From contig QPGO01000011.1 in NCBI GenBank assembly GCA_008632985.1, positions 372,001 to 436,000 on the forward strand: a stretch of DNA of 64,000 nt, read 5' to 3'. A program made the position numbers and the translations under genes. The stretch comes from Psammoneis japonica (Eukaryota). The notes under the pieces were generated by a model. It had not been told where the DNA came from, made no database searches, and saw only the letters and a list, made by a program, of their open reading frames with translations. Positions 4,168 through 63,700 of the stretch are shown one piece after another (positions within the stretch are counted from its first letter, which is position 1; each line of letters begins with the position of its first letter).

Positions 4168-4211
4168 TGCACATGGCTTATCACACAAAGATGAAGCACG
4201 CATGATGCACC

Positions 4212-18202: not shown

Positions 18203-20100
18203 GGTGCTTTGAAATGTCCCTCATGAGCAGAGCTTCTGACTGCACTGCTGTCACTTGTTTTTAGAGTGGATCACATTTTTGTGGTGTGAATTTGCTGGCT
18301 CAGCATGTTGCTGGTTGGGTGACATTGTCATCATGAGGAAGAACTCAGCACGGCTCTTTTTGGAGAGATGCTGGAACAGCTTTTTGTGGAGTCTGGGTGG
18401 TGCTCCTGTGATGTGGAAACATGAGCCACCTGGTGCTCCTGTGTGAACCTGCATAGTTTGAGCACAGTTGCCTCCCACTGACTCAGCATCTGAAATCTTG
18501 TCATCACCCCATGCCCCTTGCATTCCTGCACATGTGTCAACAGGCATTCCTGCGCCCGATCGCACCACTGTCAATTGATTGGTGCATGGCCTGGAGCCTC
18601 CCAATGTTGCGGCACAACCCCCTCCTGCAGACATGCAGCAGTTGTTGACTGTCCCATGGTTGGCGCCCAAACAATGAAGAGGACTTGAGGACATTGGCAT
18701 GGTGTGCGAAGAGCCAAAAGAAATGCATTGGAAGAGAACTGCCGCACTTTGCAAGCTGGGTCAGGCAAGCCACAAGCAGTGGATTCATGTCACTTGCACT
18801 CACTTTGTTCAACCTGATCTTGACATGGGCCAGGTGTCTGACATGCACCATGCTGCTGTCCAATTTTGTCAGAAGGGTGACATCAAATTTGATGTCTGTC
18901 TTCCAAGTCAGAATCACAGCAATGACAGCCTTCACATTGTTGATGAGGGATGCCTCATCCTTGATCAAATGGATTTTATGGCCCTGTCCAAGAAAGCCAG
19001 TGAAAATCCAGCTGATTGTTCCTCCTCTGCTGGCGACATTTGGAGAGCACTGGGCTTGTGCACAGATTGTGGCTGCACTTCTGGTTTTGAAAATTGGGAG
19101 ACGAAAGACATGTCTGCAATCAAGGCAGCAATCAAAGCAGAGGTGGAAGAGGGCCAACAATGAGATTGCGTTGAGTGACGGTTTTTTCATTGCACAAAAA
19201 TTGGAGACTGGCTCTGGAGCACATTGTGAGTGTTGTTGCTTTTGCGAACACAGTGCATGCTTTTTGGTGGGGACCACAGCACAGACATGGTGGTGGAGGG
19301 GGGTGCAGAGTGAATTGAGTGTGTCCGAGCATGGAAGATGTGTGTCACATGATGCGAACTTGTGAACCTGCAAAAATTTTAGATGACTTCGACCAACAGG
19401 AAATCGTGCCAGAATTTTGAGCAGAGGGCGTGGATGTGGAAATGCATGGGGGGAACATGCACGTGTGTGGGCAGGCATGTCAGCACGCCATCGTTGGGCC
19501 TGGCATGTGCTTGATTTGCGACCCAGCCCGTGAACAATGTTGCTTTTTCCCAGAAGAGTTGAGGCAAACACTCCGCCATGCCCAGCCTGACACAGATGGG
19601 AATGGACCATGCCAAAGCCTGCTGCAGCAATGTGAGGTGAGAGATGAGTGAGTGAGATGAGAGGCAATTGAAAAATGCTGGCAGAAGTTGTGGCTTGTTG
19701 TTCCTGATGCAGGGACAAGAGGTGTTGGCTCCAACACAGAACAATGTGCCAGGAACAACCGTGATGCAACACGGAGGTGGGCCAGTTGCAACAGGCGGGG
19801 CTCTTGCCACATTGAGCACAGAAGACTGGATGATGAGTGAAAAAAGAAAGAAGAAGCAGTGCAACAAAAAAATGAACAGCAGGGACAAGATTGTTCTGAA
19901 GAACTGCTGCAAGAACACCTTGTTCAGACAACACAAGTTTCTGAACAAAAAGGACATCAACAACAGCAATGGGAGGGTTGCAAGCACTGTGCTGTTCAAA
20001 ATCAACATGCCCCAAGAAAAGAGAGCTTGATTTTGGGAAACATTGAAGGATGAGGTGTGAAGGCAGATGACAAGAAAGAGGAACAATGCAAGTGGGGAAC
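18203..20100 (+). mobile_element. Decayed repeat family B, unidentified coding remnant
   Basis: ~18640-18840 (MVCEEPKEMHWKRTAALCKLGQASH) matches ~50740-50950 on the minus strand (MVCEEPKQLRWKRASALCKLGQASH). TpA-depleted. Confidence 0.55.
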
Positions 20101-20311
20101 TCAAGAAAGAGATGCGCCCCAGCTCTTGGGTGGCACCTCGTGCTGCTGCACTGTGACATCAAGAGTTTTTTGGATCTCGTGGCATGTCGCGCACGCAGAT
20201 TTCTGCGTGTGACATTCTACGAAATTGTTTCATGCTTGCCACTTTGCGAAGCCAAAGGCTTTCTATTTTCAACATTCATGAGAATGAAAATGCTCTGGGC
20301 ATGTTTTTTAA

Positions 20312-21872
20312 GGATGGATCTACGTGCTGCGGTCTGTTTTTTGGGAGCTCGCAATTTTCATAAAAATGACCCGGATGCATCGCAGCAAATGCACGCGCGT
20401 TCGCAAAAAAAAAATCAGCGATCGGCCGAACTTTGTCCGTTCGCCAGACACCCCAGAATGCTCAAACGACAGGTGTGACCATGCGCAACTTTCACCATGA
20501 CGACTGCAGACATGACGCGTTCCAGGTCCAGGTGGGACCTCGCACCACTGAACTGTGACATCGACAGTTTTTTGAATCGCGTCGCATGTCGCGCACGTGC
20601 ATTTCTACGTGATTTTGGCGAAATTTTGCATCATTTTATGGCACAATCATCAGGCAATCCATTCAACAACTTTTAACATTTTTTTCTTCTACGCCATTCT
20701 CGAGTGTCTTAAGAATGGCGCAGGGCAGGCGCGTTGTCCAAAACTTTGAGTGCGAACAGAGACACATGCACTGCAAACTTGGCCGTTTGTTTTATGTCGA
20801 AGACAAACATGTCCATTGACCAGAGTACAAACTACAGAGCTCGCACGTAGAATTCTACGGGGCAAATGTCACAAAAAGTCCCACCTGGGACTGGAACCCG
20901 TCACATGTCCATGGCCAGTCAAATGCCACTTGTCGGCATTTCCCGGAAAGTCGCCGCCAATCTCCCACAAGAAGCCCGATTTTAGCAAAATTTGGCGGTT
21001 TTTTTGACCTGACAACAGGGCACAGGTCGTCAAGTGGCATTTGAAGCACTGAGTGTGCAGCTCTCACAGCCATCTGACAGCCCCTGTGAGGGTTTGATGA
21101 ACGCGCGAGTGTTCGGGGGTGTTCCGAGGCAGGTCAAAATGACACGATGAAGTGCGGGAAATGCGAGCTATTTTAAATTAGACCGCAGCATGTGGATGCT
21201 GTGAGAGCTGCACATTCAGCACTTCAAATGCCACCCAACGACCCATGCGCTGTTGTCAGGTCAAAAAAACCGCTGATTTTTGCTAAAATCGGGCTTCTTG
21301 TGGGAGATTGGTGGTGACTTTCCGGGAAATGCCGACAAGTGGCATTTGACTGGCCATGGACATGTCTGCAGTCATCAAGGTAAAAGTCTCGCATGGCCAC
21401 ACCTGTGGTTCAAGCATTCTTGACGAACGCGTGAGTGTTCGGGGGTGTTCCGAGGCAGGTCAAAATGACACGGTGAAGTGCGGGAAATGTGAGCCATTTT
21501 AAATTAGACCGCAGCACGTAGATGCCATAAGAGCTGCACATTCAGCGCTTCAAATGCCCTGTTGTCAGGTTGAAAAAACCGCCAATTTTCGCTAAAATCG
21601 GGCTTCTCATGGGAGATTGGCAGTGACTTTCCGGGAAATGCCGACAAGTGGCATTTGACTGGCTGTGGACATGTCTGCAGTCATCAAGGTAAAAGTCGCG
21701 CATGGTCACACCTGTCGTTTGAGCATTCTAGGGTGTCTGGCGAACGGACAAAGTTCGACCGATCGCTGAAATTTTTTGAGCAAATGCACGCGCATTTGCT
21801 GCAACACATCCGGGTTGTTTTTATAAAAATTACGAGCTCCCAAAAAACAGACCACAGCATGTAGATCCATCC
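20312..21872. mobile_element. Non-autonomous DNA transposon, Kolobok-like (TTAA TSD, GG...CC ends), ~200-bp TIRs, internal duplications and a nested family A end
   Basis: TTAA|GGATGGATCTACGTGCTGCGGTCTG... and ...CAGACCACAGCATGTAGATCCATCC|TTGA. 20312-20513 is inverted relative to 21670-21872. Tandem ~320-bp units at ~21100-21420 and ~21425-21720. Confidence 0.75.
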
Positions 21873-21899
21873 TTGATGATGTGCTCCAAGTGTGAAGGA

Positions 21900-24330
21900 G
21901 GAGGTGCGTTCGTAAAATTGCCTCTTTTTCTGTTGGCGATCACTCACATTTTCATTGCTTGCTCTGAATGAGATGCCAGAGGGGAGAGACAACATGAGTG
22001 CACACAGCCATTTCACCCTGCACTTCCTGCCAACAGTGGTGGGAAAGACCATGTGAAAGCACCAGCTCAAGTCAAGACATTGCTTGAACAAGTTGGTGTT
22101 GGCAAGCAACAAGAGATTTGGCCTGCTGGTTTTGGAGAACAGCTGGAACAAATGGGCGCACATCAAAGGAAAAGAGAAGAGCTGAAGGAAGCCAAGAAGG
22201 AGGGGCCAACTCCAGAGGCAAAGGCACCAAAATTGAAAATGAAGCATGTGGGTGTCACTCCCCCCATTGAGTGTGGTGAGACCCCAAATGCAACGAGCCC
22301 AAAATCCACATTAAAAATGAAAGACAGCCCCAAATTTTGTCAAATTGCCCCTGGGTAAATTGTTCCCCCCTCTGATGCGTGTCATTGAAAAATTTCTTGA
22401 CAACACAATGACAAATGCTCAGTGGATGAAAAATGAGCAAGGCTGTCAATTGAACAGAAATTGAGGATGGCTGGGTGAATGAAAACAACAACTCCTCCTC
22501 ACTGCTGTCCAAACAGCAGACGAGCACCTGTGCAGAGACCATTGCAGGAGCCAAAAGACTGGTGTCGTGACATTGGTGCTGCTGTTGTTGTTTTTGTGAG
22601 CCAAATGGCTTGAAAGCAAGCTGCACCATGCATCACGCATGAAACTGAGAGCACACACAATTGTGCACAACAAACTAAAATCTTGTTCAAATCCTGTCAA
22701 ACCCCCCTTGATTGACTTGGGGTGTGTGCCAAGTGCCCTGAGTTTTGAGACTCCAGGCAGTTTGATGCCCATCAGCAACAACACATGCTTTGCATGGTGG
22801 ACTCTGGCTTCCAGGCATTGACTGTCCTTGAAAATGCCAAGAGCATCAGCAAATGACAAGGTGGATCTGGAGGCTCCCTGAAAATGTTGCAAGAGCAAGA
22901 AGAAGAGGTGAGGTGTGTGTCCCAAGTGGTGGCCACATGACCCTGGACACACCCCTGAAACAAAAGTGGGCACAGGCACCAGCTCACAAACTCAGCTGCC
23001 ATGCAAAGCAAATGGCTGAGATGATGGTGGCCCCCCAGCATTTGTCAAGCACACTGTGCATGCCACTCTGCACAAGAAAACAGCATTGAGTGCTCTGCCG
23101 TTCCCCGCTGGTCCACGCCATGAACTTGAGTGCTGCCCTGGAAGGGGGGGGGGGCACCTCTTTCCATTGGTTGAAGCAGCTCATCAAAGCAGGGTTCTTT
23201 CCTGACTTTGTTCTCTGCCCTGGTGGTCATGGCTCTGTGCCAAAACAAATGAGGAGCAAACTCCACACACCGTGCTGCACAGAGATCAAGAGCCCCATGT
23301 GAAATCAAGCCCAAGTCAAATCCACCTGAATGTTGTCCAACATCCTGACAGAAGAAAGCTCAGTTGAAATGCCCCATCTTTGACCTTCATCCACTCACAT
23401 CTTGAAAGGCTCAAAACCTGTCATGACACCCCGCTGCTCCACCTTCTGCATGAGATGATTGATCCAAACAAGTGGCTCAACTCCCAACGGTGCAGTGTGA
23501 CCACCACAATGAAGAACAAAAGAGTTTCGTCAATGTTCCCTGTGAAGCTTGAAATGCCTGCCCAACCAGCAGGACTCCAATGTGCAGATTGAGGCAAGCC
23601 ACGCTCATCTGCTGGCCAGCAAAAATCATGCCTCCCCACTTTGTTTTTGGCTTGGCTCTGCACCAGGTTCAGTTTTTGGGTCAGACAAAATGAGAGCCAA
23701 CACATGGTTGCACCAGAAAAAACTGTTTGAAAATTGAGATGCTGGCTGTGTGTGTTGAGCAGCTGCCAAGTGGAGCATTCATGCGAACGATGTGATCTGG
23801 GCACACAAACCAAAGCCACGCACTGCTTCTCATGACCATGGCCATGAACACTCTGCACAGTCCTGCACTTCTTCTGGCAGTCAGGCAGGACCACAGTGTT
23901 TTGCAAGCTTGCATCAAGAGCACTTTGTTGGTTTTCTTGTTCTGGCTCCACAGCGGGCACAAAGGGTCAGAGCACAATGATGCCATGTCTCACCTGCAGG
24001 GGCAGCTGCGCTGTCTGACCAATGCTGCAAAAGCTGGTGCTCAAGACAAGGCTTCAGCCACCATCACAATGCCGTCGCGGGTTTCATCAACAGCAGACAC
24101 AAGAACATTTTGGTGGAATTGTTCTCTGTGGCAGCAAAAGCGCCAAGAGACAAATGTTTGGTTGAGTGGGGAAGTGTGGCATGTCTCCAGTTTGCACATG
24201 GAGTGCATTGGTTGGGTGCTTTGCTCAACTGCCATCTTGTTTGGCAGCTTCACAGTTTCAGGGGCAGCGCGCAATTTTGAAGAAGGGCCACTGTTCTCTT
24301 CTCCAGTTTGCCTGTTCTCATGAAGAACGC
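21900..24330. other. Heavily mutated (TpA-free) sequence, probably a transposon remnant; family not recognised
   Basis: Near-absence of TpA and CpG; broken, Tyr-free ORFs. Confidence 0.35.
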
Positions 24331-25510
24331 AGCTGCGCTTTTGTGCTTGGCACATCATTGGAGGTGCCCAGACAAGCTGCTTCAAATCACATGATTTTGG
24401 CCTCCTCTGCACTTCCAACTCAAGCTTTGGGAGAAAGCATGCCCGGAAGTCCCGGACATGGGAGAAAAGTCCTCGTCATGTCCCACCCAGCTGCTGAAAG
24501 AAGGTGCCATTCATGCTCACAGTCAGATGGAGATGCGTCATCATGCTGTTTCATTCAGAAGGTGTGTGCATCAAAGCTGCTTCTGAAAATTCTCATCTTT
24601 GACAGCATCTTCATTGTTGATGCTCCTGAGGTCAAGAGCCAACAATCCACCCCAAACTTTGTCCTGCACCATCATTGATTGCACCCAAAAAGCAGCTTGC
24701 AGGAAGAAGACAAAAGAGAGCCTTGCATGCAGACCTGGACAGATGCCAGATTGCACCACTCTTCTTGGGACTTCAACCAATGCATTTGGGCAGGCTGCAA
24801 TGACAGCGTCAAACAGATCTTTGTCCCCCTCTGTCTTGGCATGCAGTGCAGGTGCCAACAGCAGAATGTTGTGAGGGCAAAGAACAAGTTGATTGCTGCT
24901 TGAGATGGATGAAGCAAGGCAGTTGATGTGGCATTGATTTCATGCGTGAGTTCAATCACTGCTTCTGCTGCACTGCTCTTTTCCATGTGGAGAGCTGTCT
25001 CCAATGCCCACTTGGCCTCTTGCAAAAGTGAAGCCAACCGGGGGTCACTTTGTTGCAACAATTCAAAAGCAGGAGACACCCACTCTGCTGCACCAATGCA
25101 CAGGACAATCGAGACAGGAACAAACAGTTGCAAGCATTGCTGAAGCCACAAAAGATAAACGATGATGCAATGCAAACCACCTTGGGGTGGCATGTCATCT
25201 GCAAGTGGCAACATTCAGTCTAAATGGTGCAGGTGCTTCAATTTGGTTTTTTGCGAAGAACAAGTTGATCGCGCTGGAGACAGACACGAGCTGTTTGCAG
25301 CGCCTGCTCGGCCTCTTGCACAAATGAAGCCGACCGGGGGGGTTGTTTTGTGACAATTCAAAAGCAAGAGGCATCCCCTCTACTGTACAGCATTGATGGT
25401 CAGGACAATCGAGACTGGAACAAACAGTTGCAAGCATTGCCAAAGCCACAAAAGAAAAATAATGACAGAAATCAAACCACCATAAGGTGGCATGTCATCT
25501 ACTTCAAATT
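24330..25510 (-). pseudogene. Decayed ankyrin-like or multicopy-family gene fragment with internal ~200-bp duplication
   Basis: ETALHM and DAVIAACPNAL (AYPxAL-like with Y->C). ~25010-25202 is duplicated at ~25310-25502. Confidence 0.4.
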
Positions 25511-25564
25511 TGGTTCTACACGCCCGTCGCCACCAAAACTCACACTAATGTTGCTGACATGATC

Positions 25565-26082
25565 CTAAGGGTATGGCGCGTATGGCGGGTATGGGATGCC
25601 CTTCGACCCCGACATGCCCTTCGACCCCGACTTGGGGCTCTTTGGCGACTTGGGGCTCTTCGGCGACTTGGGGCTCTTTGGCGACTTGGGGCTCTTCGGC
25701 GACTTGGGGCTCTTCGGCGACTTGGGGCTCTTCGGCGACTTGGGGCTCTTCGGCGACTTATAGCTCGTTGGGGGGGGTAATACTGACAAAATGTGCGGCA
25801 ACAGCAGCAGCGTCAGTGGATAGGAAAAGGATTTGACACAAAACCATAGACAAATCCTGCAACAGCCACCCCGCACGCCACTGGTAGTGCGAAATGAAAC
25901 GACGGGGAACGAACCAACAACCACGAGAATCACTAGGCCCAAACAAAGAAACTCACCGGGAGTTTGCGAGCACCTGGAAACTCGGAAGAGGCACCGCGAA
26001 TCTTGGAGACTTCGCGAAGCTCGGCAGAGGCAGAAGCCAGGACGAGGGCGAGGACGGCGAAAATGGCAACGGAGGGCTTCAT
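25565..26082 (-). CDS. Secreted silaffin-like (Lys-Ser-Pro)n protein: signal peptide, RKL processing site, 14 KSP repeats, Tyr/Pro tail
   Basis: Exon 1 26082-25957 MKPSVAIFAVLALVLASASA...GARKLP followed by GTGAGT. Last exon from ~25782 has 7 x 18-bp units whose only variation (CCA/CCG) is synonymous in the KSP frame, ending KSGSKGMSGSKGIPYPPYAPYP*. Splice phase is off by one unless the G8 run at 25770-25777 is mis-sized or a mini-exon exists. Confidence 0.8.
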
Positions 26083-26977
26083 CGTTCTGCAACGTTTGGT
26101 GTGTCGAGCAAAAAACGAAAAATTGTGTGCGAGATTGTGAGTGCATTCAAAAATCGTTTTGAGACATCGTTTTGAGACATGTGGGCCATACACGTGCAAC
26201 TGTACTGAGTTTCACGTGTGCGAAGCAGCGGGGTAAAGAAAAATTGGACCTACTTCTTTTCTGATACTACTTGAGATGTATCAGCGCATAAAGATATATG
26301 AATATGAGAGTCAACTATTTTACAGATTTTCTGTTGGCGCCAGGAAAACAACTCAAATTTTCAAATCCAATCTTGCAATTTTCAAATCTGTAGAAATCAC
26401 AATACAGCTCCCTGCAATCAACCCAAACCTTGATACAAAAAACCACAGTAAAATCGCGAGCAACGTTATAAACAAAATATACTGTAATGTAGTTACTGCA
26501 CTATTTTAATTCCCTGGAAAAAAGTGCATATGAGTTGTTAATGAACATTGAAAAAAATGTGCACACACTTATATTTTAAGGGGGGTCATCCCCGCGTTTA
26601 TCCTAAAATTACCGTTGCATTTGAACAAGGTTTTTTATGGTGTTTATTTTTGGATACAAGAATTATTCATAGTCACACCCGATCGCGCACGAAAACGAGA
26701 ACCATCAGCACCGCGACCGAAGCACGACGATGATGACAATCATCGACATTTCTCAAAAACGCAGTTTGCCGTCTACCAACTTTTCATGTGTGTGCAATCT
26801 TTGTTACATGACAAACATAAAACAAATGAGAGTTGGTGGACGGACCACCTCCGTCACAGACTTATGGCTTGTTGTTTTCACCACGGTGAAGCACGCTGAA
26901 ATTCAGGAAAAATCATGCAAAACACGAGCTGTTCGGCCGAATTCGAGCTAAAAAAAGCAGCAACCAACCACCCTTAA

Positions 26978-29900
26978 AATGTCACAACATTTCAATTGCA
27001 CGTCAATCGTGGGTTCGTACGAGGGACAGATCAGTCACACAGAATTGATCGGATGTTGGAAACTTGTAACCTGCGCACAAATGCGATCGCTTGACGATGT
27101 TGACATCTACGTGTCAATGGCAATCGCACCCGGACAATCTGTTGTCATGAACGTGTTCTCCGAAAGGCCTGTCAGTCTGTGGGAACAGCGCAAAAGCTTC
27201 AGGCCATTGAGAACTCGTTCGGAGAAACCCCCAAAATGATTGAGCAAAATCCAATCTCACGACATTCACTTTTCGCACTTTGCTCTGCTTTCATTTGCAC
27301 TTGTTCTTCAAGCACAGCACATTGTGCACACACACCACAGAAGGTGAAAAGACAAAAATGAAGCTTTCACCTCATGTTGCCAATGCCAAGTCTTCCCCCA
27401 AGCAAAAGAGAAAATTGTTCCACAACCACTGGGATCAATCTCTGAGCCAAAGACACTCAAACCAAGACAACACCTCAAGATGGAGCAGTGCTTTGTCCCA
27501 GGAAAGAAGGACAGCCCACCACACTTCACCATCAATGTTGAACATTGCAAGAAGCAAGGTGTTCCCAAGTGCATTGAATGTCAAAGAACTGTGGTCAACT
27601 CTTGGTGGGTCAGAACATCAAGAAGCAATCGGATGAGTTCCGTCTCATGCTGGCTGTCAGGAAATGCCTGCATGCATTTGAGAGTGGGGCTGCAAATGTT
27701 GAAAATGAAGAGAGCAAAGGAGCCTTCAAAAAATGTCTGCAACACCTCGCCAGACATGTCGTCTTCCCAAAGAACGCACCCCAGATTCAGAAGCGTCATT
27801 TACGACGCAATCTCCAGAAGCCAGAGAGCAGGAAGATCCAAGAAATCACCACTTGGGTGCAAGAAGTCAACAAAGACCTGGTGCCTGACCCTTCCTTTGA
27901 AGAAGTTCAGAAGATCAAGGAGGATGAGCTCAAGGATGTCCTCTGCAATCTTGCTTGCACCTGCAAATGGCAGCAGCACCTGTCGACCCTTCAAGGTTTG
28001 AGAATGCCTTCGACAAGTTGGCCAAGGCTTCAGAGCATCTGGAGGTTGCTGAGGATGTCTTTGACACTGTTCATCATGTCAAGGCTGATGCTGGGGACAA
28101 CCTGGATCAAAAGCCAAAGATGGATCCAACCCTGGTTCCAAAAATGGTCGTCAATCTGGCGCCAAATGATCTGAGTCCAACAAGTGGTGCAACTGTTGCG
28201 AGAAATCCACTCATGACATGGACAAGTGCTGGGACATTGACAGACTTGTAAAAGAATGAATGCACTGGAAATCACAAACGCAACCCAAAAAGGCATCATT
28301 CAAATGGCAACTGCACATGGTCACAAACAAGAGTTGAATGCCATGGTGATCCAGGCAGTTCAAAAAACACTCAAGATGAGTTCTTCAAACAACAATGCAA
28401 AGTGCAAGAGCAAGGAATGCAATTCTGACACCCTCAGTGAAAAGAATTGTCAGTTTGAAAAAATGATGTGCAATGATTCTGAAGAATGACTGGTGCCGCT
28501 GAGAAGTCTTGCATGCCGCTGGGCGCCAGGAAGCCCAGCAAAAGGGTCAAAGTGATGCATGCCACCAGCCCAGCAGTCATTGCTCACATCAGCACCTCTT
28601 TGGGTGAAGCAAAGAACAAGCCTCTGTGTGTTCTCCTTGACAGCAGAACATTGTCAACCACAGCTTTGTGCAAATTCATGTGGAAATTGAGAATGAAGAA
28701 ATCCACCACCAAACTTGGGAAACCAAGGGTGGGCTCTTCACGACTGACAGTCACTGCACAGCACAGTTCTCTTCACCCAAATTTGACAAACATGAGATGC
28801 CCAATGGTGTGTGTTGACAACACCCCTTCTTCTTTGAGTCATTGTGATGTGATCATGGGAACACAACTTGATGTCAAGTCTTGGGATCACATCGAACTTT
28901 GTTGCAAACAAAGAAATCAAATGGGAAGAAGCAGCTGCACCCATGAGCAATGTTGATGCACTCTTCAATGCCAGTGGGCTCAAGCTGATTGCCAACCACA
29001 TTGAGGAATCCCATGCCGTGGTCAGCCTCAATGACAGGGTCAGTTGAATCCTTGACTCAGATTGTCATGCAGCTGACCTCAATGATTGACTGCAGCTGCA
29101 ACTCATCTGACTCCAGAGGAGCAGAAGCAGTTGAACTTCCTCCCAAAAAGATTTGAGGATGGATTGTCCAGATGAGGTCTGTTTGCACGCGAGCTTGCAT
29201 TTTTTTGCAAAAAACCCGGATTTCTTGCACTGGATGCGCGCACTCGCCAACAAAACATTTTCAGCGATGGGTCGAAGTTTGTCCCTTCGAAAGACATCAT
29301 AGAAGGTGTTGGCGATGGTTGTGACCATGCGCGATCTTTAGCTCAACGACTGCAGACATGTCCACAGCCAGTCAAATGCCAGTTGTTGGCATTTCCTGGA
29401 AAGTTGTGGCTTGTCTCCCACAAGCAGTGCGATTTTGGCAAAAAACAGCGCTTCATCGAATGTGACAACTGCACCGAATCCAACAGTTGGCGTTTGAAGG
29501 TTGAAATGTGCAGCTCACACACAGGTCTGACAGCCCTGATGGGGGCAGGATGCACTCATGCCGGCAAGTGTTTGGGAGTGCTCAGAGGCATCGCAAAATG
29601 ACACGGGCGAAGTGCGGGGAAATTGCAAAATCACGAGCCAATTAAAAAAACACCTCATCCAGACGATCCATCCTTGAAAACCTTTTTGACATTTCTCTGA
29701 GCAAATGGACCAGGAAACCTGTGGATCTCAAGTTTAAGTCAGGCACAAATCTGCATCATGCAAAGCCATTTCCCATGCCACAAGCCTTGGAGGCGACTGC
29801 TCAAAAGGAGGTTGAAAGACCATGCAAGTTGAAAGTCTCAAGAAAAACGAGTTGCTCCAAATGGGCAGCTCCAACCTTCATTCAACCAAAGAAAAATGGT

Positions 29901-32592
29901 TGAGTTTGGTTTCTGTCCAACTTTTGTGAGCTGAACAAGAGGTCAATGCATGCTCTGTTTCCTCCACCCAATGTTCAAGACATGCTGCAAAAACTTGAAG
30001 GTTTTGTGCGCCACTTCCCTCTTGTTGATTTGAGCATGGGACACTGCCACGTCAAATTGACTCCATGTGCACATTGCTTGTGCACTGTTGTCATGCCTTG
30101 GGGCAAATGTGAGTGCTGCAGACTGCCTGCAGGAATCTGCGGAGCTCCAGACATTTTCCAACAAGAGCAAATGAGTGAGCTCATGGCAGGTCTGGAGTTT
30201 GTCAGAGCTTGCATTGATGGCACACTGTGCCTTGCAAAAGGTGGTTTTCAAGACCATCTCAAAAAGCCTGAAATGGTGTTCACACACCTGAACAAACTGG
30301 GCTGAAGGTCAGCGCCAAAAAGTCCTTCTTTGCCAAACCTGAAGTGGGCTGTCCAGGCTTTCACATCACCCACAATGATGTCAGCCCAACACCAACAAAA
30401 GCAAAAGCAGCTCACTTGATTGCAACACCCAAAACTTGCAAAGAATTGCGACATTTTGTTGGTGTGATTCATGTGGCCTTGACAGTCTCATGTTCTTGCT
30501 CTGTCAGCCAAACTCACCTCATCCTGGGTGAAGTGGCAATGGACTGAAATGGAGTGAAAAGACTTCAAAAATGTGGTGCAAATTGTTTCCAAAGATGTGT
30601 CATTGTGCACCTGAATTTCAACAAACCCTTTAAGACACACACTGACACAAGCAATTCTCAATTGGGGGTGGTCATTGTGCAGAACAACTGACCTCTTGCC
30701 TTCTGCAGTTGCAAGTTGAGTGGAGTGCAGACATGCCACGCTGCAACAGAAAAAGAGCTTTTGTCCACAATGAAGACATTTGAGGAATTTCAAAATGTGC
30801 TGTTTGGCCAACAGATCAACACGTCATGGATCACAAGAATCTCACCCATGAGAACTTCACAATGGATGGAGTGATGCACTGGCTTGGCAACTGACAATGG
30901 AAGAATGCAGCCCCAAATTAAATTGCCTCAAGAGCAAGGCAAGCATTGTTGCACAGATGCAATCAGCTGACTTGCTGTGAAAAAAATTGGACCTGTGGAA
31001 AACCCAGGCATTGAAGATCTGGCGGAGAAAGTCACACCCAAATCCCACGACAGTGTCTTTCCATCAACTCACAAAGTTCCAGACACTGAGCAAAAGTGGG
31101 GCAAAGACATTCTCTCCAAATTGTTGGTGCAACACATCACACAAAGACTTTTTGTAGAGGCGGGTGAGACCGGTTGCTCATGTGTCATGAGGAAAAAATC
31201 ATTGCACCCAAGGCATTGCAAAAAGTGGTGATGGATTGGTGCCATGCACACCTTCTGCACCCAGGCACAAACAGAGCTGAAGAAACAATCTTGCACCACT
31301 TGTGGTGGTCTGCCTTGCATGAAAACATGCAAAAACATGTGTCGAAATGTGAGGCATGCCAAAAATTTAAAAAGAAACAGGTGAAAGATGGACACTTGCC
31401 CCCCTGAGTGCACAAAAGCAGTGCCATGGGAATGACTGTGTGTGGATCTCATTGGACCATGCATGATGTGTTGCAAGGGAAAAAAGAAACCCCATGATCC
31501 AGCAACAGGATGGTTTGAAGTTGTGGAAATTCCAAACAAGGAATCCACAACCGTTGCTGGATTGTTGGAGTGGATGTGGCCAAGTGGACATCCTTGGCCA
31601 TCATCAATTGCGTGTGACTGTGGAAGTGAGTTCGCTGGACACCAACTCAGAAACATGGTTGAAGAGGACTGTGGCATGAAATGCAAGCCCACAACTGCAT
31701 GAAATCCACAAGCAAACACAGTTGTTGAATGCACACATCAAGCACCAGGCAATGTGCTGCGTGCATTTGACCCGCAAAATGCATCTCTGGACACAGACAA
31801 TCCATTTTTCTGGTGTGCTGTCAGCAGTGGCCTTTCTGTGCATTCTGCACACCGCGCCACTGTGCAAGCTGCACCAGGACAACTGGTCTTCAACAGAGAC
31901 ATGATTTTCAATGTCCAGCACATTGCTGATTGGAGGTTTGTTCAGAAACAAAAACAAGAAATCACAAAAAAAAAACAATGCTCAAGAGAATGCTTGACGT
32001 GCTCCATGCATGTGCAGAGTGGGAGAAAAGACTCCGCTTGAAAGAGACTCTCAGAAATTAGAGCAGCCCTGTGTTGGACCACACGCACAATGACAATGGC
32101 GCACACTGATGGCGCAGCACACAGATCAAACATGGTGACATCATTGATGCTGTCAACATTTGCTGCGTTGTGCCATTTGACGAATGACTCCAACATGCAG
32201 CTGGGGAGGCAAATGCAACATGCACTGTCATGTGCATTTCATGTGTGTGTGCACTTCAATGTTGTTGTGCTTCAATTGCACATCAATTGTGGGTTCATGC
32301 AAAGGACAGATCAGTCACACAGAATTGGTTGGAAGTTGGAAATTGCAAACATGATTGCTTGACAATGTTGACATCTTGCGCGTCAATGGCAATTGCATCC
32401 GGACAATCTGTTGTCACACAAACGTGCATTTTTTGAAAGGCACTTTAGTCTGTGGGAATGGCGCAAAAGCTTTGGGCCATTGAGAGCTCATTCAAAGAAA
32501 CCCAAAATGATTGAGGAAAATCCAATCTCACAATTTTCACTTTTCGCACTTTGCCCCACTTTTGTTTGCACTCGTTCTTTGAGCACAGTGCA
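26978..32592 (+). mobile_element. Ty3/Gypsy LTR retrotransposon, decayed (gag, protease, RT, RNase H, integrase)
   Basis: LTRs at ~26978-27321 and ~32214-32592, PPT GGGGAGG at ~32203. Protease VLLDSR; RT WAAPTFIQPKKNG and FVRACIDG; RNase H TEKELL; integrase HLLHPG, CEACQKFK, GHLPP, DLIGP. Confidence 0.92.
29157..29673. mobile_element. Kolobok-like MITE nested in Gypsy pol, related to 20312-21872
   Basis: TTGA|GGATGGATTGTCCAGATGAGGT ... ACCTCATCCAGACGATCCATCC|TTGA. Removing it plus one TSD restores the Gypsy reading KRFENLFD. Confidence 0.8.
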
Positions 32593-32599
32593 AAAGCAT

Positions 32600-33700
32600 C
32601 TTTTCACCCATGAAAAGCATCCTCACAATGAAGCCCTTGTCAAAATCAATTGCTTTGCAACAGCTTCTAGAGACAAGGCTTCCTGCTTGACCACTCTTGA
32701 GACACATCAGGTTGTGAAAGTGCCGCGCAAGCACAAACGCATCTCATCATGCTTGTCGCGAGAACTTTTGCATCCTGTTGGTCATGAGTGCAGTTGATTG
32801 CATTGACTCTTGTGCCAACTCTCCAAAGTTTTGCTTTCCCCTCTTTTTCGACAAAGGTTGCAAACAACAACACTGTTTTGCGAGTCCCCAAGAATGTTCA
32901 CAATGCCCTCCCCAGCCATTTCTGGACAACACTTTGGCGCTCTGTCAATGGCCATGCCCATTTTGCAACCCATCATTTGCAACAACATCTCTTTGTTGAT
33001 GAAGTCATTGCAAGCAGCCACCAAGTGAAGGAGAGATGTTGACTTGTTGATCTCTCCATCTTTGCCCTTTGTGCCATCCACAGCATTTTCCAGGGTTGTT
33101 GGGGGGTCAATCCATCCTTGCTCATGCAAAATTTTCTACAATCCTTTTGGCTTGTTGACCCATCCGTGCTTCACCTTTTGAATGGGTTTCTTCAACAGGT
33201 GTGTTGTTGCTCCTTGCTGTGTCAATCAACTTGTCTTTTTCTTGCTCCTGATGTTCTTGATGTTTTTTGCAGAAGCTTGTCAAAAATTTCATTGCGCAGG
33301 AGCTTCCTGAGTTTCAGTTTGACCCTCAACAGGTGTGTCACATTTCTCATCTTCTCATTCTTCCGGCCTCATCCACTGTGGTCCCTGGCCTTCCGCCTCA
33401 CTCAATGCCATTGTTTGCACTTGTCCTGCAGACAACATGCCAGCTGCTTTGGCATGAGGACCTGGGGAAGCCCTCTGCCAGAACAACCTCAGTGGGGTCA
33501 TCAGGGACCCAAATCAATGAATCCTCACATTTGCAGATGGCCAGGCTTCAGTCTGCCAAAACACGTGTGAGCACAAGCACGTCAATGTGTTCACAAATGA
33601 ACAAGTCAGATTTGTCATGAATCAAAATCATTTGTGACAAACAAGTGTGATTTGGAAACAAATGAGTGCCCGGCACCTCTGACAAATTTCCATGGCTTCA
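32600..33700 (-). mobile_element. IS630/Tc1-mariner-like DDE transposase remnant
   Basis: PKGL*KILHEQGWIDP and MGMAIDRAPKCCPEMAGEGI, similar to the PKCHPELAGEGIE motif of this group. Confidence 0.6.
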
Positions 33701-33849
33701 AATCAAGGACATGCAAACCAATGAGTTCATTGCATTGCAACAAGTTGACTCCAGCATGACATTCCATTTGATGACTTTTGGCAACTCACTGACAATGGAC
33801 TGGGTGACTGGCATCCCAGCTGGCCATTTTGCGATGCATCCTTCCAGCT

Positions 33850-39931: not shown

Positions 39932-40150
39932 ATTATGCAGAACTCATTTTTGTTTCGTGATTCTGGAGAGTCGTCGGTTTGTTGGGCTAATTTACTCTAC
40001 TTTCAGTGAGTATACTTTGGAACTTGTCCCACGAGGCATTGAATTATGCAGAACTCATTTTTGCTTTGTGATTCCGGAGAGTCGTCGGTTATTTGGCCTA
40101 ATTTACTCTACTTTCAGTAAGTACATTTTGGAACTTGTCCCACGAGGCAT
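39932..40150. repeat. Two tandem ~110-bp units
   Basis: AATTATGCAGAACTCATTTTTG...GAACTTGTCCCACGAGGCAT occurs twice. Confidence 0.85.
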
Positions 40151-43330: not shown

Positions 43331-43343
43331 CAAACAACTGACA

Positions 43344-44648: not shown

Positions 44649-45715
44649 TCACAATTGGTCGTCCAGCACAAAACCCGCAGTGAAATTGTGTCGCGACTCT
44701 GTGCTCATTCCTTTGCCAATGACAAAAGTTTCTAGCTTGTTTGCCGCCAAGCCATCATCGCCCGTCAGTGGCAGCACCAGACTTCCAGGTCCAACCAATC
44801 TCAACTCGGTCGCCTTGGCAATGGCCCTGGGCACACAGCTTTCTCGCAAAAGTGAACCCACCAAATGGGGGTCACGCCGCGGTGCAGCAAAACTTGCGCC
44901 GAGCACACTTTGCCAGATGCGGGTGGCACCATGATGGGGATGGGTGAAAAGCATTTGGCAAGAGCATGTGCTGTCAAACCACTTCGAGCAATTGCAACAA
45001 CACAAGCTCTGCTCCCATCTCCCTTGCAGCCACAATGGCACTCTTTGCAAATGCATCGCAAAGCATTCCACATTCTGACGAGACTCCCTTGTTGCTCTTG
45101 GCAGATGCTCCATCATTCGATGCCCCCCTGGCACAAAGCGAACTTGCCACGTCCAGCTCTGCCTCTTTGCAAATCCGCGTCATGACTTGGATGGCTTCGA
45201 TGCTTTCCTGCGGCAGTTTCTCCGGAAAGCATGCAACAATCCACCCCATCAAACATGGCATTGGCAACATCGGAGGCTTCGGAATGCATTGGCCATGGGT
45301 GGTTGATCATGGAATCCAACAGTTCCGTGGCTGCAATGACGGGTTTGCCCACGGCATCACCACAGGATGCCACGAGACATTTTTGGACCAAACAGACGCG
45401 CTCCAGTGGAATCTCCACACCCAAATCACCTGAGAACATCAACAGGGCGGGCAATGTCAACAAGGTTGACATCAAGAAGGAAGCAAAGGATGACTCAAAT
45501 TGCCGGAACATTGAACACATTGGCCTTGCAGAGATGAGCTGCGTTCCAAGCAACAACAATGTCAACGGTCACTCACCTCTTGCCACCATGACACCATTGG
45601 ACACTTGCAGCATGGATTGAAAGTTGTCCAGACCTTCTTGTGATTCAATCTTTGCAATTGTGTGTGCCCCAGCTTCTGCAACACCGGGCAGTTCCCGAAT
45701 CTGATTGGCTCCTGC
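44649..45715 (-). pseudogene. PK: Pyruvate kinase pseudogene (C-terminal half, one intron retained)
   Basis: IAKIESQEGLDNF..VMVARG, intron 45576-45430, [49 protein letters not shown], later RSGLTAHALAKCFSPIPI and LHRGV. Frameshifts present; 5' part replaced by Copia sequence. Confidence 0.9.
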
Positions 45716-47990: not shown

Positions 47991-48179
47991 AAACAATGCA
48001 TTGGCAATTCCCCGTGCTTCCCCTCTCATGCATTTTGGCGCGTTCTGCGTGCCGGCATGGTGCGCAACCACACACCATGCCAGACACGCAACAACCAACC
48101 AATCGACCGACCGCAATGGAAATGGGCAACACGCCATGGAGCATGGAGCGTTCACGTCCCATTCATGTCGGCTCTTGTC

Positions 48180-48770
48180 AAACAACAATGACGCCAGTCA
48201 ATCCAGTGGATGAGATTGCAGACAACAGTGTAAAACAAAAAATGAATGGAAGTGTGACAGATGATGTTGAGCAGACAACTGGGCAAAAGTTGAGCCGTGT
48301 GTGGCCAACAAAAATGTGTTGGATTGAACCGTCATGCCCACTCTTCCAATTTGCACATCTCACGTGCAGAATGAAGTGGATTGTTTGGATCACTCTTTTG
48401 TCGTGCATTCAGAAAGGCGCAAGCCACGAGGCATCTGGTGTGAAGGATGAGGCAAAAGCAAAATCGCGCATGGTTGACAAAAATGTGGCAGATTGATTGA
48501 CAATGTTTGTTCTTCCCTTTGACCCATCTCACGTGCAGAACACAGTGTGTCATTTTTTCCTTCTTGTGTGGTCACAAATGCAAACCACAATGGCTCTGGA
48601 GCAAAGGCTGAGGCAAAAATGGAGCCGCACATGAGCAATGTCAACATGTGTGATTTAATGGCAAAGTTTGTTCTTCCCTTGCTCCACCACAAGGGGCCGC
48701 TTTGTGTCGATTTGTCGAATGCATCTGTCATGGTTGGCGGTGGCAGAGCGTGGCTTTCTGGTCAAATGTG
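48180..48770. repeat. Copy of the foldback-arm repeat family (similar to ~1500-1990)
   Basis: 48482-48650 aligns with 1713-1885 (AATGTGGCA..CATCTCAYGTGCAGAA..TGTGTGGTCACAAATGCA). Confidence 0.7.
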
Positions 48771-50720: not shown

Positions 50721-50739
50721 CAACAAACCCAGAAATCAC

Positions 50740-62300: not shown

Positions 62301-63700
62301 GAACATGCTCAAGTTCTCACGATCTTGTGCTTTTCCGTCCGGTGCATTGTCTGGAGCAAGCCAAGGTTTGAAGTCATTCTCTGGCTCGGATCCCATGGTC
62401 CAATGGCCACGTTCTTGCTGAGAATCATTTGGATCACTTCCAGAGCTTGTTTGCAACAGTTGCAGCTGTTTTGAGTGGTTTTTCCATGGGAGGGATGGCG
62501 AGGAATGCGTTGCAGCAGATGTCACAATGTTCGACTTCTTGCTCGTCTTCTTTCACAGATTCTGTTTCTTCATTTCCTTTTCTTCCTGCACAGGTTCCGA
62601 CTTGTCCCTGGTGATTTGTGACTTTTCTGTTCCTGTTTCGTCATTGTCAGAGGAGACATCTCCCTCCTCCTGAATTGTTGACGAATCCATGTGGTTTTTG
62701 CTTGTTGGATTTTCGGTCGGATCATCCTCCATGTCCTTGAGCAGTTCTTTGTCATCAGAGGGTTCACCAGTGTCAGAGTCTTCTAAGACTTCTAGTTGAT
62801 GAAAAATGTCTTGAGCAAATCCATCATCCCAGGTCTGCTCTTCTTCATCTTTGTCATCTTTCATGTGTTCTTCATCTTTAAGAATGTCCGTTTCATCTTC
62901 GGAGTGTGTCATTTTTGTCTTGCTTCTGGCGTTGTGGTCATGAATTTGCAGCGCAGCAAGGTTTTCTGTGGCGCATGTTTTTTCTGCAGAATTTGCACCG
63001 GGGTTCTGCGGTGGTTGGAGACCCACCATGTCTCTTGTTCTCGTCATTTGCTGCTTCTGTTGGAGAATTTGCTTGACCATTTTGTCCTTTTCCTCTTTTC
63101 TTGTCGGCACCTTTGTGTGGTGAGTTGTTCTTTTTACTGCCGGAGGTGCGTCGTTTGTTGTTTGCCATGGGGCAATTTTTTTAGCTTGGTGTTTGCACGC
63201 ACGTGCGAGTTGTGGCATCTCCACACATCATTGTGCCGCGTCAGAAACCATGCGGAGTCGATGCTCATGACCAACATGCAAATGCCTTTGCCCATTTTCG
63301 TCATGTGCAGAAGGGGCTCGGGCACCAAACCTTCCCTGGTGCCTCGCCTTTTTCTTCGGGCACACCATTTTCTTGCTCTTTTTGTGATGATGGAGACCTG
63401 TTGGCACACACCGCCCAGCGCACTCAGTCATGCCCCCCCAACAAGCCAGGGGCTGCGAACAATTCCACGAAAACACCTTCGACATTCTCAATGGCAAAGC
63501 CAATGATTTGGGGAGAAGCCAAGCTTGAGCCGAGAAGGCCATTTCTGCCATCAAAACCGTCAAGTGGGCGCACCACAGTTCTCGGCCGGCTTGTTTTCTG
63601 CGTGACCTGGTGCAACCCAAACTTGTGCAGGTTCAGCGCATTTTGCCCTGTGGAACAACTTTTGGGAGTGTTTTCTGGCTCGCGGCTCAAAACAACACGC
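56380..63700 (-). mobile_element. Non-LTR (LINE) retrotransposon, decayed: ORF1, APE endonuclease, RT, RNase H, CCHC
   Basis: GDLTILGGDFNE and LDH (endonuclease, ~61200-61420); SVDAKS..DRILH, QGIFQGHGAAPAIW, HAFVDDTDL, ATGGALVPEKSFW (RT); AIGVTDGSFKD (RNase H); CPRCGKEENNTDHILRC. Confidence 0.9.

Follow-up and report, generated by a model that had tools for sequence, protein, structure and literature searches.

Long parts of the DNA analyzed here, a single window of 64 kb, contain hardly any TpA dinucleotides, and the question raised by this locus is which process could have removed them and left the adjoining genes untouched. An earlier note on the same DNA had proposed a repeat-targeted hypermutation, a kind of reverse RIP, and had placed it in a fungal frame. 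This frame turned out to be wrong, as the eukaryote-named matches of three proteins in the window all come from diatoms (GPI8 with 11 matches, pyruvate kinase and Copia with one each), and the host belongs to the stramenopile algae and is probably a diatom. The protein-atlas clusters matched by GPI8 were of a generic eukaryotic kind and did not narrow down the taxonomy. The explanation that we favor, with a probability of about 0.75, is a TpA-specific process at the DNA level, which acted in place and on both strands, came close to saturation and hit dead mobile elements and a gene copy, leaving a footprint of the type found in Bigelowiella natans.

TpA-depleted blocks and their borders

A recount exactly reproduced the three manual TpA counts on which the proposal had been based, namely 1 in 33001-33600, 0 in 46021-47040 and 27 in 14281-14880 (GPI8). 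In 1-kb bins located fully within repeat blocks the observed/expected ratio (O/E) of TpA is mostly 0.00-0.13, and in most of them CpG O/E is 0.10-0.63 and the mean TG/CA O/E 1.56-2.08, whereas bins fully within gene blocks have a TpA O/E of 0.43-0.87 and a CpG O/E of about 0.8-1.2. A CpG O/E of 1.56 was found in the gene bin 16001-17000. Calculated blockwise, a TpA O/E of 0.00-0.09 is coupled to a TG/CA O/E of 1.5-2.0, and ApT, ApA and TpT show no depletion in the blocks. TpA is mildly under-represented everywhere, with a genic O/E of 0.57-0.62.

Nine depleted blocks with a pooled length of 38,670 bp contain 96 TA, 802 CG, 4310 TG and 4162 CA (2.5, 20.7, 111.5 and 107.6 per kb), and the corresponding numbers for two gene blocks (19,376 bp) are 806, 1100, 1397 and 1425 (41.6, 56.8, 72.1 and 73.5 per kb). 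Added together, the four reach almost the same density, 242.3/kb in depleted blocks versus 244.0/kb in gene blocks, which indicates that TA and CG were turned into TG and CA and that little else was altered. The longest TpA-free runs measure 3,498 bp (44733-48231), 2,480 bp and 1,929 bp, with log10 P values at genic TpA density of -64.5, -45.8 and -35.6. The depletion is confirmed as real and lies far beyond chance.

Table 1. Depleted blocks, spared blocks and identified elements in the 64-kb window.
Feature	Position	Strand	Details
Depleted block, repeat without recognized family	430..3637		5 TpA in 3,208 bp; TpA O/E 0.02, CpG O/E 0.51, TG/CA O/E 1.86/1.91
Inverted duplicate inside 430..3637	1253-1988 vs 2168-2896		79% identity over 742 bp
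Spared gene block: kinase/cyclin ORF, SET-domain gene, TMEM164, GPI8	3638..17375		549 TpA; TpA O/E 0.57, CpG O/E 1.05
N gap	17376-18202		Directly before depleted block 18203..20217
Depleted block, no element recognized	18203..20217		4 TpA; TpA O/E 0.03, CpG O/E 0.28
Tandem/inverted repeat cluster, partly mutated	20218..21913		32 TpA; TpA O/E 0.29, CpG O/E 0.95
Depleted block, no element recognized	21914..25155		3 TpA; TpA O/E 0.01, CpG O/E 0.18; holds the 2,480-bp TpA-free run
Spared island flanked by two depleted blocks	25156..27107		68 TpA; TpA O/E 0.49, CpG O/E 0.99; both borders sharp
Dead Ty3/Gypsy LTR retrotransposon	26991..32588	+	LTRs 26991-27317 and 32271-32588; pol remnants 29646-31972; part 27108-32588: 13 TpA, TpA O/E 0.03
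Depleted block, no element recognized	32589..38910		8 TpA in 6,322 bp; TpA O/E 0.02, CpG O/E 0.25
Spared expressed gene block	39096..44632		Block 39096-44733: 257 TpA; TpA O/E 0.62, CpG O/E 1.04
Pyruvate-kinase pseudogene fragment	44679..45868	-	About residues 244-608 of about 610
Longest stretch without any TpA	44734..48230		Successive TpA at 44733 and 48231, 3,498 bp apart
Truncated Ty1/Copia element	45575..47843	-	Covers roughly residues 456-1267 of a polyprotein with about 1,850 residues
Depleted block, no element recognized	48232-52009		10 TpA; TpA O/E 0.04, CpG O/E 0.40
Depleted block, no element recognized	52010-56522		27 TpA; TpA O/E 0.09, CpG O/E 0.48
Depleted block, no element recognized	56523-63135		26 TpA; TpA O/E 0.06, CpG O/E 0.37

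The borders of the blocks are sharp (Table 1). At 3638 the TpA counts of successive 100-bp bins change from 0, 0, 0 to 4, 5, 4, and comparably sharp borders in 100-bp bins lie at 25156, 27108, about 39000 and about 44633-44733. The signature formerly described for about 430-3500 extends over 430-3637. Some borders match element ends, for example the end of the pyruvate-kinase fragment. The last 117 bp or so of the spared island overlap with the 5' LTR of the Gypsy element. The process is confined to the blocks of dead mobile elements with the embedded copy of a gene fragment, and the adjoining genes, which in 3638..17375 match the Pfam families Pkinase, Cyclin_N, SET, TMEM164 and Peptidase_C13, are untouched.

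The Gypsy element has LTRs with 80% identity, its read-through frames match the Pfam families RT_RNaseH_2, RT_RNaseH and Integrase_H2C2, and 150 reverse transcriptase (RT) relatives map onto its pol remnants. Ten of the RT relatives are free of Tyr. The Copia element, mapped by tblastn, has 245 relatives at E<=1e-5 (best 1.6e-80), most of them with PF07727. For the pyruvate-kinase copy we found 29 relatives with 43-82% identity, all of which contain PF00224, and the copy retains a TpA-free GT-AG intron of 147 nt at 45430-45576 (GTGAGT...CTCAG, flanked by ..VARG and DLGVE..). Consequently, the list of targets in the earlier note holds for the Gypsy element, the Copia element and the pyruvate-kinase copy, and its calls of a Crypton-like recombinase, a LINE and DNA transposons found no confirmation. 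A Pfam search of the 130 ORFs of at least 90 aa in depleted blocks, including the true RT frame, gave no match, and the same is true for 32589-39002 read through in six frames. No element was recognized in about 27 kb of the depleted sequence, and to speak of mobile elements there is an assumption.

A 113-bp repeat copy at 325-437, just outside the first block, is spared (TpA O/E 1.04), and TpA depletion is seen in its relatives at 20110-20224 and 20514-20611. The comparison with 20110-20224 is as it had been described before: the 7 TpA of the spared copy correspond to 3 CA, 1 TG, 1 TA and 2 other dinucleotides. Location or chromatin accounts for the spared copy as well as repetition does. Duplicates were hit, but with this copy spared the homology-dependent targeting implied by a reverse RIP is only a possibility.

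Direction of the substitutions and concurrent CpG decay

The direction of the changes was determined in 582 codon columns which are conserved in the relatives of Copia, Gypsy and the pyruvate-kinase pseudogene. Tyr is kept in none of 21 conserved columns (Copia 0/15, Gypsy 0/4, pyruvate kinase 0/2) and is replaced by His in nine and by Cys in eight of them, with one case each of Trp, Gln, Arg and Phe, as compared with 417 of 523 columns kept for residues other than Tyr and Arg (Fisher p = 1.4e-14). The retention of Lys (22/24), Asn (17/20) and Phe (17/17) indicates that A:T pairs outside TpA were not pushed toward G:C, and A at codon position 2 following a base other than T became G in just 6 of 142 columns. 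The 153 changed columns comprise A:T>G:C changes (32 at TpA versus 12 elsewhere), G:C>A:T changes (46 at CpG versus 12 elsewhere), 21 transversions, 26 multiple changes and 4 ambiguous cases. The direction is TA to TG or CA, that is A:T to G:C, as the earlier note had read it from Tyr codons. TpA loss is no trait of the Copia family, since among 80 metagenomic loci with related Copia elements none has a TpA O/E below 0.4 (median 0.72, minimum 0.45). The loss is also biased by the flanking bases: TpA within RTAY is gone, and TTAA survives best. Back-mutation as the sole source of the residual TpA was considered and rejected (chi-square p = 2.6e-17).

The earlier note knew of no described system with this signature, which no longer holds, as a 2026 preprint measured it in B. 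natans (Mettrop et al., bioRxiv 10.64898/2026.01.13.699255). According to the main text of this preprint, integrated NCLDV and virophage DNA underwent TpA to TpG/CpA hypermutation in mutation-accumulation lines, where A>G or T>C accounted for 230 of the 231 mutations found in two viral regions, each of these 230 on TpA. Clusters across that genome are TpA-depleted and enriched in CpA and TpG, low-TpA coding sequences are enriched in RT and DDE domains, and the mechanism is given as unknown, with an ADAT2-like deaminase proposed by the authors. As far as the preprint's main text goes, B. natans and the window have in common A>G and T>C changes at TpA in both orientations, their confinement to foreign or mobile DNA, and a long-term depletion of TpA with a gain of CpA and TpG. 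In contrast, B. natans is a rhizarian and the host of the window a stramenopile alga; the NCLDV region is reported to retain many TpA (Rho 0.45; 3.3% of dinucleotides), whereas TpA O/E in the window is 0.00-0.09 over tens of kb; and new mutations were measured there, whereas the window holds a footprint alone. The window also shows a concurrent CpG decay, what became of a duplicated host-gene fragment, and a flank bias, three features that the main text of the preprint does not mention. In the literature that we searched, B. natans is the one organism with an A>G counterpart of RIP or APOBEC editing.

CpG is depleted as well, and less completely than TpA, as had been noted before: its O/E is 0.18-0.51 in the blocks versus 1.04-1.05 in genes. 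In line with this, Arg is kept in 12 of 38 conserved columns (Copia 5/21, pyruvate kinase 6/11) and was lost mostly to His, Cys and Trp. Decay of 5-methylcytosine in silenced transposons explains this CpG to TpG/CpA half of the signal, also in the related metagenome Copia loci, several of which have a CpG O/E of 0.13-0.25, but it is unable to remove TpA or to change a TAY codon to TGY or CAY. Methyl-CpG decay is a second, incomplete process in the same blocks, and it is separable because the repeat cluster at 20218-21913 is TpA-poor (O/E 0.29) yet CpG-normal (O/E 0.95).

The common fate of both dinucleotides is also the starting point for the rival explanation that survives best, namely that a modified base mutates. 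Either the adenine of TpA would be N6-methylated in silent chromatin and 6mA deaminated to hypoxanthine, as an adenine equivalent of 5mC decay, or the thymine of TpA would be oxidized by a TET/JBP-type enzyme to 5hmU or 5fU, which mispairs with G. Both TpA and CpG are palindromes, and within the same blocks each of them decays to TG/CA. In addition, 5hmU in dinoflagellate DNA is said to favor TpA, and 5-formyluracil gives A:T>G:C changes. However, the cluster at 20218-21913 lost TpA and not CpG, so that two marks would need independent setting. Furthermore, the mutations of B. natans, as described in the preprint's main text, occurred at a rate about 1000-fold over background in bursts and in only some lines (Mettrop et al.), to which a switched enzyme fits better than slow chemical decay. 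We therefore regard a mutating modified base as rather improbable.

Action in place on chromosomal DNA

Both DNA strands were hit, as the earlier note had claimed. Coding-strand changes at TpA are A>G in 17 and T>C in 15 cases, the balance (TG-CA)/(TG+CA) stays within -0.04 to +0.125 across all nine blocks, and both outcomes are interspersed (runs-test z -1.4 to +1.5). Strand-coordinated, kataegis-like clusters were considered as well, and none was seen in the runs test. Duplicates were mutated independently: the inverted pair in 430..3637 has 24 TG-versus-CA discordances compared with 4.5 expected by CpG decay (P = 1e-10), and the tandem pair 21094-21420/21420-21729 has 7 compared with 0.4 (P = 1.5e-7). 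No excess of discordance was found in the LTR pair of the Gypsy element (6 versus 4.9 expected), for which loss before insertion or concordant outcomes may fit too. Taken together, the balanced and interspersed TG and CA, the independently mutated duplicates and the TpA-free intron indicate that the substrate was chromosomal DNA, attacked in place, and not RNA or cDNA, as had been concluded before.

These data leave little room for A-to-I editing of element transcripts by an ADAR- or ADAT-like enzyme, followed by reverse transcription and renewed insertion. ADAR and ADAT/TadA usually edit an A that is preceded by U, as stated in the B. natans preprint (10.64898/2026.01.13.699255), and the Gypsy LTR pair would be compatible with such a route. 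Nevertheless, T>C on the sense strand is as common as A>G, the DNA copy of a host gene was hit together with its retained intron, the outcomes in duplicates are independent, and the sharp-bordered blocks span nested fragments as well as sequence without a recognized coding remnant, which makes editing at the RNA level highly improbable.

To a still lesser degree can we believe in an artifact that arose in sequencing, polishing or assembly, such as long-read miscalls at modified bases. The window contains an N gap in a scaffolded assembly, and nanopore miscalls at methylated motifs are known. However, contigs which were built independently from a public sequencing run (X1), probably of the window's own sample, match the TpA-free sequence. 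One contig of 556 letters differs from 36187-36744 in 2 letters, and the longest pieces over the blocks have 2-16 differing letters per 412-556, a length which at genic density would carry about 17-23 TpA; their word depth is about 50, which is not equivalent to copy number. Moreover, the broken frames and the Tyr to Cys/His changes agree with a real decay, and borders fall at element ends such as that of the pyruvate-kinase fragment. It is equally hard to believe that no special process was involved and that inherited TpA avoidance or GC-biased gene conversion among repeats, plus CpG decay, sufficed, as the mildly low genic TpA and related Copia loci down to 0.45 might suggest, but the complete loss of Tyr next to retained Lys, Asn and Phe, the undepleted ApT, ApA and TpT and the lack of any TpA-free locus among the 80 relatives speak against it.

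The TpA-specific process in place on DNA, which remains our preferred reading, would convert A:T to G:C at TpA and yield TG or CA according to the strand attacked. Presumably, adenine is deaminated enzymatically to hypoxanthine in DNA at 5'-TA, and a TadA/ADAT2-type or other deaminase is a candidate enzyme, possibly guided by a silent-chromatin state or by small RNA. Because TpA is palindromic, A and T are indistinguishable as the attacked base. The effect would be an irreversible inactivation of invaders, in which all Tyr codons would be destroyed and TAA and TAG stops would become read-through or TGA. Among the genes of the window no deaminase was seen with Pfam, and the long open frames that were scanned include no causative gene, in agreement with the earlier note.

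Ongoing TpA mutation is not shown by the differences between X1 and the window, though few targets remain: the best-supported 40 of 351 differences include 1 TA>TG, 1 that creates TA and about 20 that involve CpG. A second run (X2) behaves like RNA, as it contains GT..AG-spliced joints, for example one in the expressed gene block that skips 43467-43556. Its contigs cover 9 of 30 bins, essentially gene bins, and the missing cover on the blocks is no evidence of silence.

Relation to other mutational systems and implications

To our knowledge, fungal RIP and animal APOBEC editing are the only mutational genome defenses that have been studied in depth, and both cause C>T changes. Like RIP, the process in the window uses transitions at a particular dinucleotide to inactivate mobile or duplicated DNA irreversibly, and leaves a strong dinucleotide footprint. 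In contrast, RIP changes C to T, mostly CpA to TpA, and raises TpA and AT content, whereas the process in the window destroys TpA and creates TG and CA. RIP is also homology-dependent, premeiotic and known only in fungi, whereas the host here is a stramenopile alga, and it is reported to leak into adjoining sequence, whereas the borders in the window are sharp at 100 bp. A Rhizoctonia paper (PMC7884421) contains, in the part consulted, RIP indices only.

With regard to the chemistry, ADAR hyper-editing of repeat-derived dsRNA and the tRNA adenosine deaminases TadA and ADAT2-ADAT3 resemble the process in the window, as they change A to I (read as G) and prefer U or T before the target A; the natural tRNA target of the latter is U33-A34. 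Unlike the process in the window, these are RNA enzymes or, in the case of TadA-derived base editors, engineered, and none is seen among the genes of the window. Early TadA-derived editors favored YAC, which recalls the loss of TpA before Y and the retention of TTAA. We know of no natural enzyme that edits chromosomal dsDNA at TpA.

One may speculate that an editor of chromosomal DNA with specificity for TpA serves as a genome-defense system in the SAR supergroup, either shared by B. natans and this stramenopile alga or evolved twice, although we would bet slightly against it. With the same reservation, such an editor might act on double-stranded silent chromatin and on a random strand, erase RTAY and spare TTAA, operate side by side with cytosine methylation but independently of it, and drive transposons and stray gene copies to the full loss of Tyr codons.

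For genome annotation it is relevant that TpA-free repeats escape Pfam (0 of 130 ORFs) and, with TGA as their sole remaining stop, bear long false ORFs. The TpA O/E of repeats together with their TG/CA O/E offers a simple genome-wide screen, and the extended motif (RTAY/TTAA) can be compared with the published new mutations of B. natans. If the agent is a natural dsDNA deaminase at TA, it would represent a new enzyme class with direct use in base editing. The window represents a second, distant lineage with the TpA hypermutation signature, here saturated on transposons, and this lineage belongs to the ecologically major algae. This opens the comparative question of which genes are common to both hosts and absent from relatives without the footprint.

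Extent and direction of the TpA loss

The 1-kb bins of the window, which contains a single N gap (17376-18202), fall into two composition classes. Bins wholly within the two gene blocks (3638-17375 and 39096-44733) have a TpA observed/expected ratio (O/E) of 0.43-0.87 and a CpG O/E of about 0.8-1.2 (1.56 in bin 16001-17000, which adjoins the N gap), and those wholly within repeat blocks mostly show a TpA O/E of 0.00-0.13, a CpG O/E of 0.10-0.63 and a mean TG/CA O/E of 1.56-2.08. Segmentation of the window, with every TpA-poor stretch delimited by its outermost TpA, yields nine depleted blocks (see table), which together hold 96 TpA in 38,670 bp versus 806 in 19,376 bp of the two gene blocks. 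This contrast confirms the depletion described in the earlier note, whose three hand counts of TpA were all exact on recount. The longest stretch devoid of TpA measures 3,498 bp, which has a log10 probability of -64.5 at genic TpA density. The border at 3638 is sharp, with TpA per 100 bp changing from 0, 0, 0 to 4, 5, 4, 4, and those at 25156, 27108, ~39000 and ~44633-44733 are equally sharp at 100-bp resolution. A spared 2-kb island (25156-27107; TpA O/E 0.49, CpG O/E 0.99) lies between two depleted blocks. A CpG-rich repeat of ~100-115 bp has kept its full TpA content in a copy next to, but not within, a depleted block (325-437; O/E 1.04), and is depleted in the copies at 20110-20224 and 20514-20611, at a block edge.

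Coordinates of depleted blocks, elements, duplicate pairs and supporting contigs (window positions)
Feature	Position	Strand	Details
Depleted block	430-3637		5 TpA, O/E 0.02
Depleted block	18203-20217		4 TpA, O/E 0.03
Depleted block	21914-25155		3 TpA, O/E 0.01
Depleted block	27108-32588		13 TpA, O/E 0.03
Depleted block	32589-38910		8 TpA, O/E 0.02
Depleted block	44734-48231		0 TpA, O/E 0.00
Depleted block	48232-52009		10 TpA, O/E 0.04
Depleted block	52010-56522		27 TpA, O/E 0.09
Depleted block	56523-63135		26 TpA, O/E 0.06
Dead Ty3/Gypsy element	LTRs 26991-27317 and 32271-32588		LTRs 80% identical
Truncated Ty1/Copia element	45575-47843	minus	245 relatives at E<=1e-5, top 1.6e-80
Pyruvate-kinase fragment	44679-45868	minus	29 relatives, 43-82% identity
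Inverted pair	1253-1988 / 2168-2896		TG-vs-CA discordances: 24 observed, 4.5 expected from CpG decay, P = 1e-10
Tandem pair	21094-21420 / 21420-21729		TG-vs-CA discordances: 7 observed, 0.4 expected from CpG decay, P = 1.5e-7
X1 contig	36187-36744		556 letters, 2 other letters
X1 contig	32566-32982		417 letters, 3 other letters
X1 contig	35544-35955		412 letters, 3 other letters

The depleted blocks are reproduced by contigs assembled independently of the window from the public sequencing run X1, which is probably the window's own sample. These contigs span all 30 bins of 27001-47000 with a word depth near 50, and genic density would predict ~17-23 TpA in each of the three listed in the table. 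Of the 351 differences between X1 and the window, the 40 with the best support include ~20 that affect CpG, a single change of a window TA to TG and another that creates a TA. They do not demonstrate present-day TpA activity, but hardly any targets remain. Contigs of a second run, X2, skip 43467-43556 (90 nt, GT..AG) and ~40529-40625 within 39096-44632. Because they join across GT..AG gaps, X2 behaves like an RNA library, though it is not recorded as one, and both gaps probably correspond to short introns in expressed genes. Furthermore, a 1,539-aa open frame on the minus strand (6677-12330) encodes a protein-kinase domain, matches cyclin-N weakly and overlaps a SET-domain frame at the beginning of the latter.

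For the direction of change, relatives were placed on the window by tblastn and columns were retained where a minimum of 15 relatives (8 for pyruvate kinase, PK) were aligned and 70% or more of them shared a residue, which gave 582 conserved codon columns (Copia 325, Gypsy 106, PK 151). Conserved Tyr was retained in none of 21 columns, being replaced by His (CAY) in nine, Cys (TGY) in eight and Trp, Gln, Arg and Phe in one each. Arg was retained in 12 of 38, with His, Cys and Trp as the main replacements, and all other residues in 417 of 523 (Phe 17/17, Lys 22/24, Asn 17/20); both Tyr (Fisher test, p = 1.4e-14) and Arg (p = 1.2e-9) were lost more often than these remaining residues. Sorted by substitution class, the 153 changed columns comprise 32 with A:T>G:C at TpA (read on the coding strand, 17 are A>G and 15 T>C) and 12 away from it, 46 with G:C>A:T at CpG and 12 away from it, 21 transversions, 26 that require more than one change and four ambiguous cases. 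As an A at codon position 2 after a non-T base had also become G in only 6 of 142 conserved columns, the TpA process is specific and runs from TA to TG/CA, which bears out the direction originally proposed; the loss of CpG reflects ordinary decay of methylated CpG. The 28 repeat pairs within the window contain 67 cases in which only one copy has a TpA, and in 46 of them the other copy reads TG or CA. These cases are not independent because copies overlap between pairs.

The counts per kb are 2.5 TA, 20.7 CG, 111.5 TG and 107.6 CA in the blocks (sum 242.3) versus 41.6, 56.8, 72.1 and 73.5 in the genes (sum 244.0). The gain of TG and CA in the blocks thus balances the loss of TA and CG, and G+C is almost constant (0.465-0.52 versus 0.46-0.47 in the genes), as expected for two opposite transitions.

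Affected elements and in-place action on both DNA strands

Three elements could be recognized inside the blocks. The Gypsy element has Pfam matches to RT_RNaseH_2, RT_RNaseH and Integrase_H2C2 on read-through frames, and 150 reverse transcriptase (RT) relatives align to 29646-31972. The relatives of the Copia element are mostly polyproteins of ~1,900 aa with PF07727. The PK fragment retains a canonical 147-nt intron (GTGAGT...CTCAG, 45430-45576) between ..VARG and DLGVE.., which makes it a copy of genomic DNA rather than a retrocopy; this intron contains no TpA. About 27 kb of depleted sequence matched no element. Pfam gave no match for 130 block ORFs of at least 90 aa, nor for the six read-through frames translated from 32589-39002. 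It has little power on these blocks, given that the true RT frame (29904-30302) was one of the 130 and likewise scored nothing. Long false ORFs occur in all six frames throughout the depleted blocks (430-63135), for example one of 559 aa on the minus strand (18537-20216). They arise because TAA and TAG require TpA, so that TGA is the sole remaining stop.

On one strand, TG and CA occur in similar numbers throughout the nine blocks, with (TG-CA)/(TG+CA) between -0.04 and +0.125, and their order along the sequence is random (runs-test z -1.4 to +1.5), so the runs test revealed no strand-coordinated tracts in the blocks. Together with the 17 A>G versus 15 T>C changes, this agrees with the strand symmetry claimed earlier. 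Independent TpA loss in duplicates predicts that half of the ancestral TpA end up discordant, with TG facing CA between the two copies; the discordances expected from CpG decay alone were estimated via the surviving CpG pattern. Both the inverted and the tandem pair exceed this expectation by far, and the inverted pair has six other double-transition mismatches. Its arms, 0.73 kb each, 79% identical and 180 bp apart within a depleted block, may represent a foldback-type element or a head-to-head insertion. The discordant duplicates and the TpA-free PK intron uphold the proposal that the process acts on DNA. The LTRs of the Gypsy element are the lone misfit to simple in-place loss: they differ by 20%, nearly all transitions, and unlike the other duplicate pairs show no significant excess of discordances (6 observed versus 4.9 expected from CpG decay). 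These LTRs may have been TpA-poor beforehand, mutually converted, or copied from an already mutated element.

Separability from CpG decay and flank bias

The block at 20218-21913 has lost most of its TpA (O/E 0.29) with CpG intact (O/E 0.95). An alignment of the window's ORF with 25 relatives was used to retrieve 80 Copia loci from metagenomes. TpA O/E falls below 0.4 at none of these loci (lowest 0.45, median 0.72), where one search pattern contains Arg codons and would miss decayed copies and the other fits the window's own mutated sequence; therefore, TpA loss is not a property of the family. Several of these loci (L009, L025, L008, L007 and L026) combine a CpG O/E of 0.13-0.25 and a TG/CA excess with a TpA O/E of 0.45-0.61, a pattern of methylation decay alone, with the TpA process absent. 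As TpA is normal at such loci, CpG decay alone does not cause TpA loss. Thirteen of the best 150 Gypsy RT representatives in public protein data (P0292, P0298, P0301, P0310, P0315, P0323, P0332, P0381, P0392 and four others) contain no more than 1.2% Tyr, against a median of 4.2%, together with elevated Cys+His. They may represent additional hypermutated copies, whether from the window's organism or from others; a mutated query also favours such matches.

The TpA that survive in the blocks (n=95) are non-random by context (chi-square p = 8.5e-22). TTAA occurs 27 times in blocks and 33 times in genes, ATAT 0 and 47, GTAC 0 and 68, and ATAC/GTAT 1 and 140 times; scaled by length, survival is ~41% for TTAA and <1% for RTAY. 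Random back-mutation of TG/CA fails to account for this pattern (p = 2.6e-17). A model that judges each strand's A by its 3' neighbour alone misfits GTAA/TTAC, of which 21 remain.

Host lineage and precedent

GPI8 has no near-identical match among 385 relatives, and the 120 of these that were listed are 37-60% identical. All 11 named rows among the listed matches are diatoms (Fistulifera, Seminavis, Mayamaea, Nitzschia, Attheya, Cylindrotheca, Thalassiosira). The single named PK relative is Amphora, and the single eukaryote-named Copia relative is Fistulifera, a second named row being labelled a Bacteroidota MAG. From these protein matches, the host belongs to the stramenopile algae and is probably a diatom. 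Nor is it B. natans, whose proteins should be in the public databases and would then have given matches of nearly 100% identity. The host is not a fungus, and a fungal frame is wrong, given that the eukaryote-named relatives of GPI8, PK and Copia are all diatoms, and targeting of repeats in the sense of fungal repeat-induced point mutation is unproven.

The view that such a signature was undescribed is out of date. A full-text literature search found a sole precedent, in Bigelowiella natans (Mettrop et al., 2026, bioRxiv preprint 10.64898/2026.01.13.699255), and none in stramenopiles. According to that preprint, 231 of 302 nuclear point mutations in 15 mutation-accumulation lines lay in integrated viral regions (NCLDV 211, virophage 20); in 230 of these cases the change was A>G or T>C, always on TpA, at rates near 6e-7 per site per generation and in some lines only. 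It also describes 124 clusters in the B. natans genome that are depleted in TpA and enriched in CpA+TpG, an enrichment of RT and DDE domains in low-TpA coding sequences, and an ADAT2-like protein as the proposed enzyme (Mettrop et al., 2026). For the window, we infer that the chemistry would be adenine deamination or involve a modified A or T. The hypermutation is saturating here, where its targets are transposons and one stray copy of a gene; it is accompanied by CpG decay, yet separable from it, and has a flank bias that is testable. The finding is most readily classed as TpA hypermutation of the B. natans type in a second, distant host.
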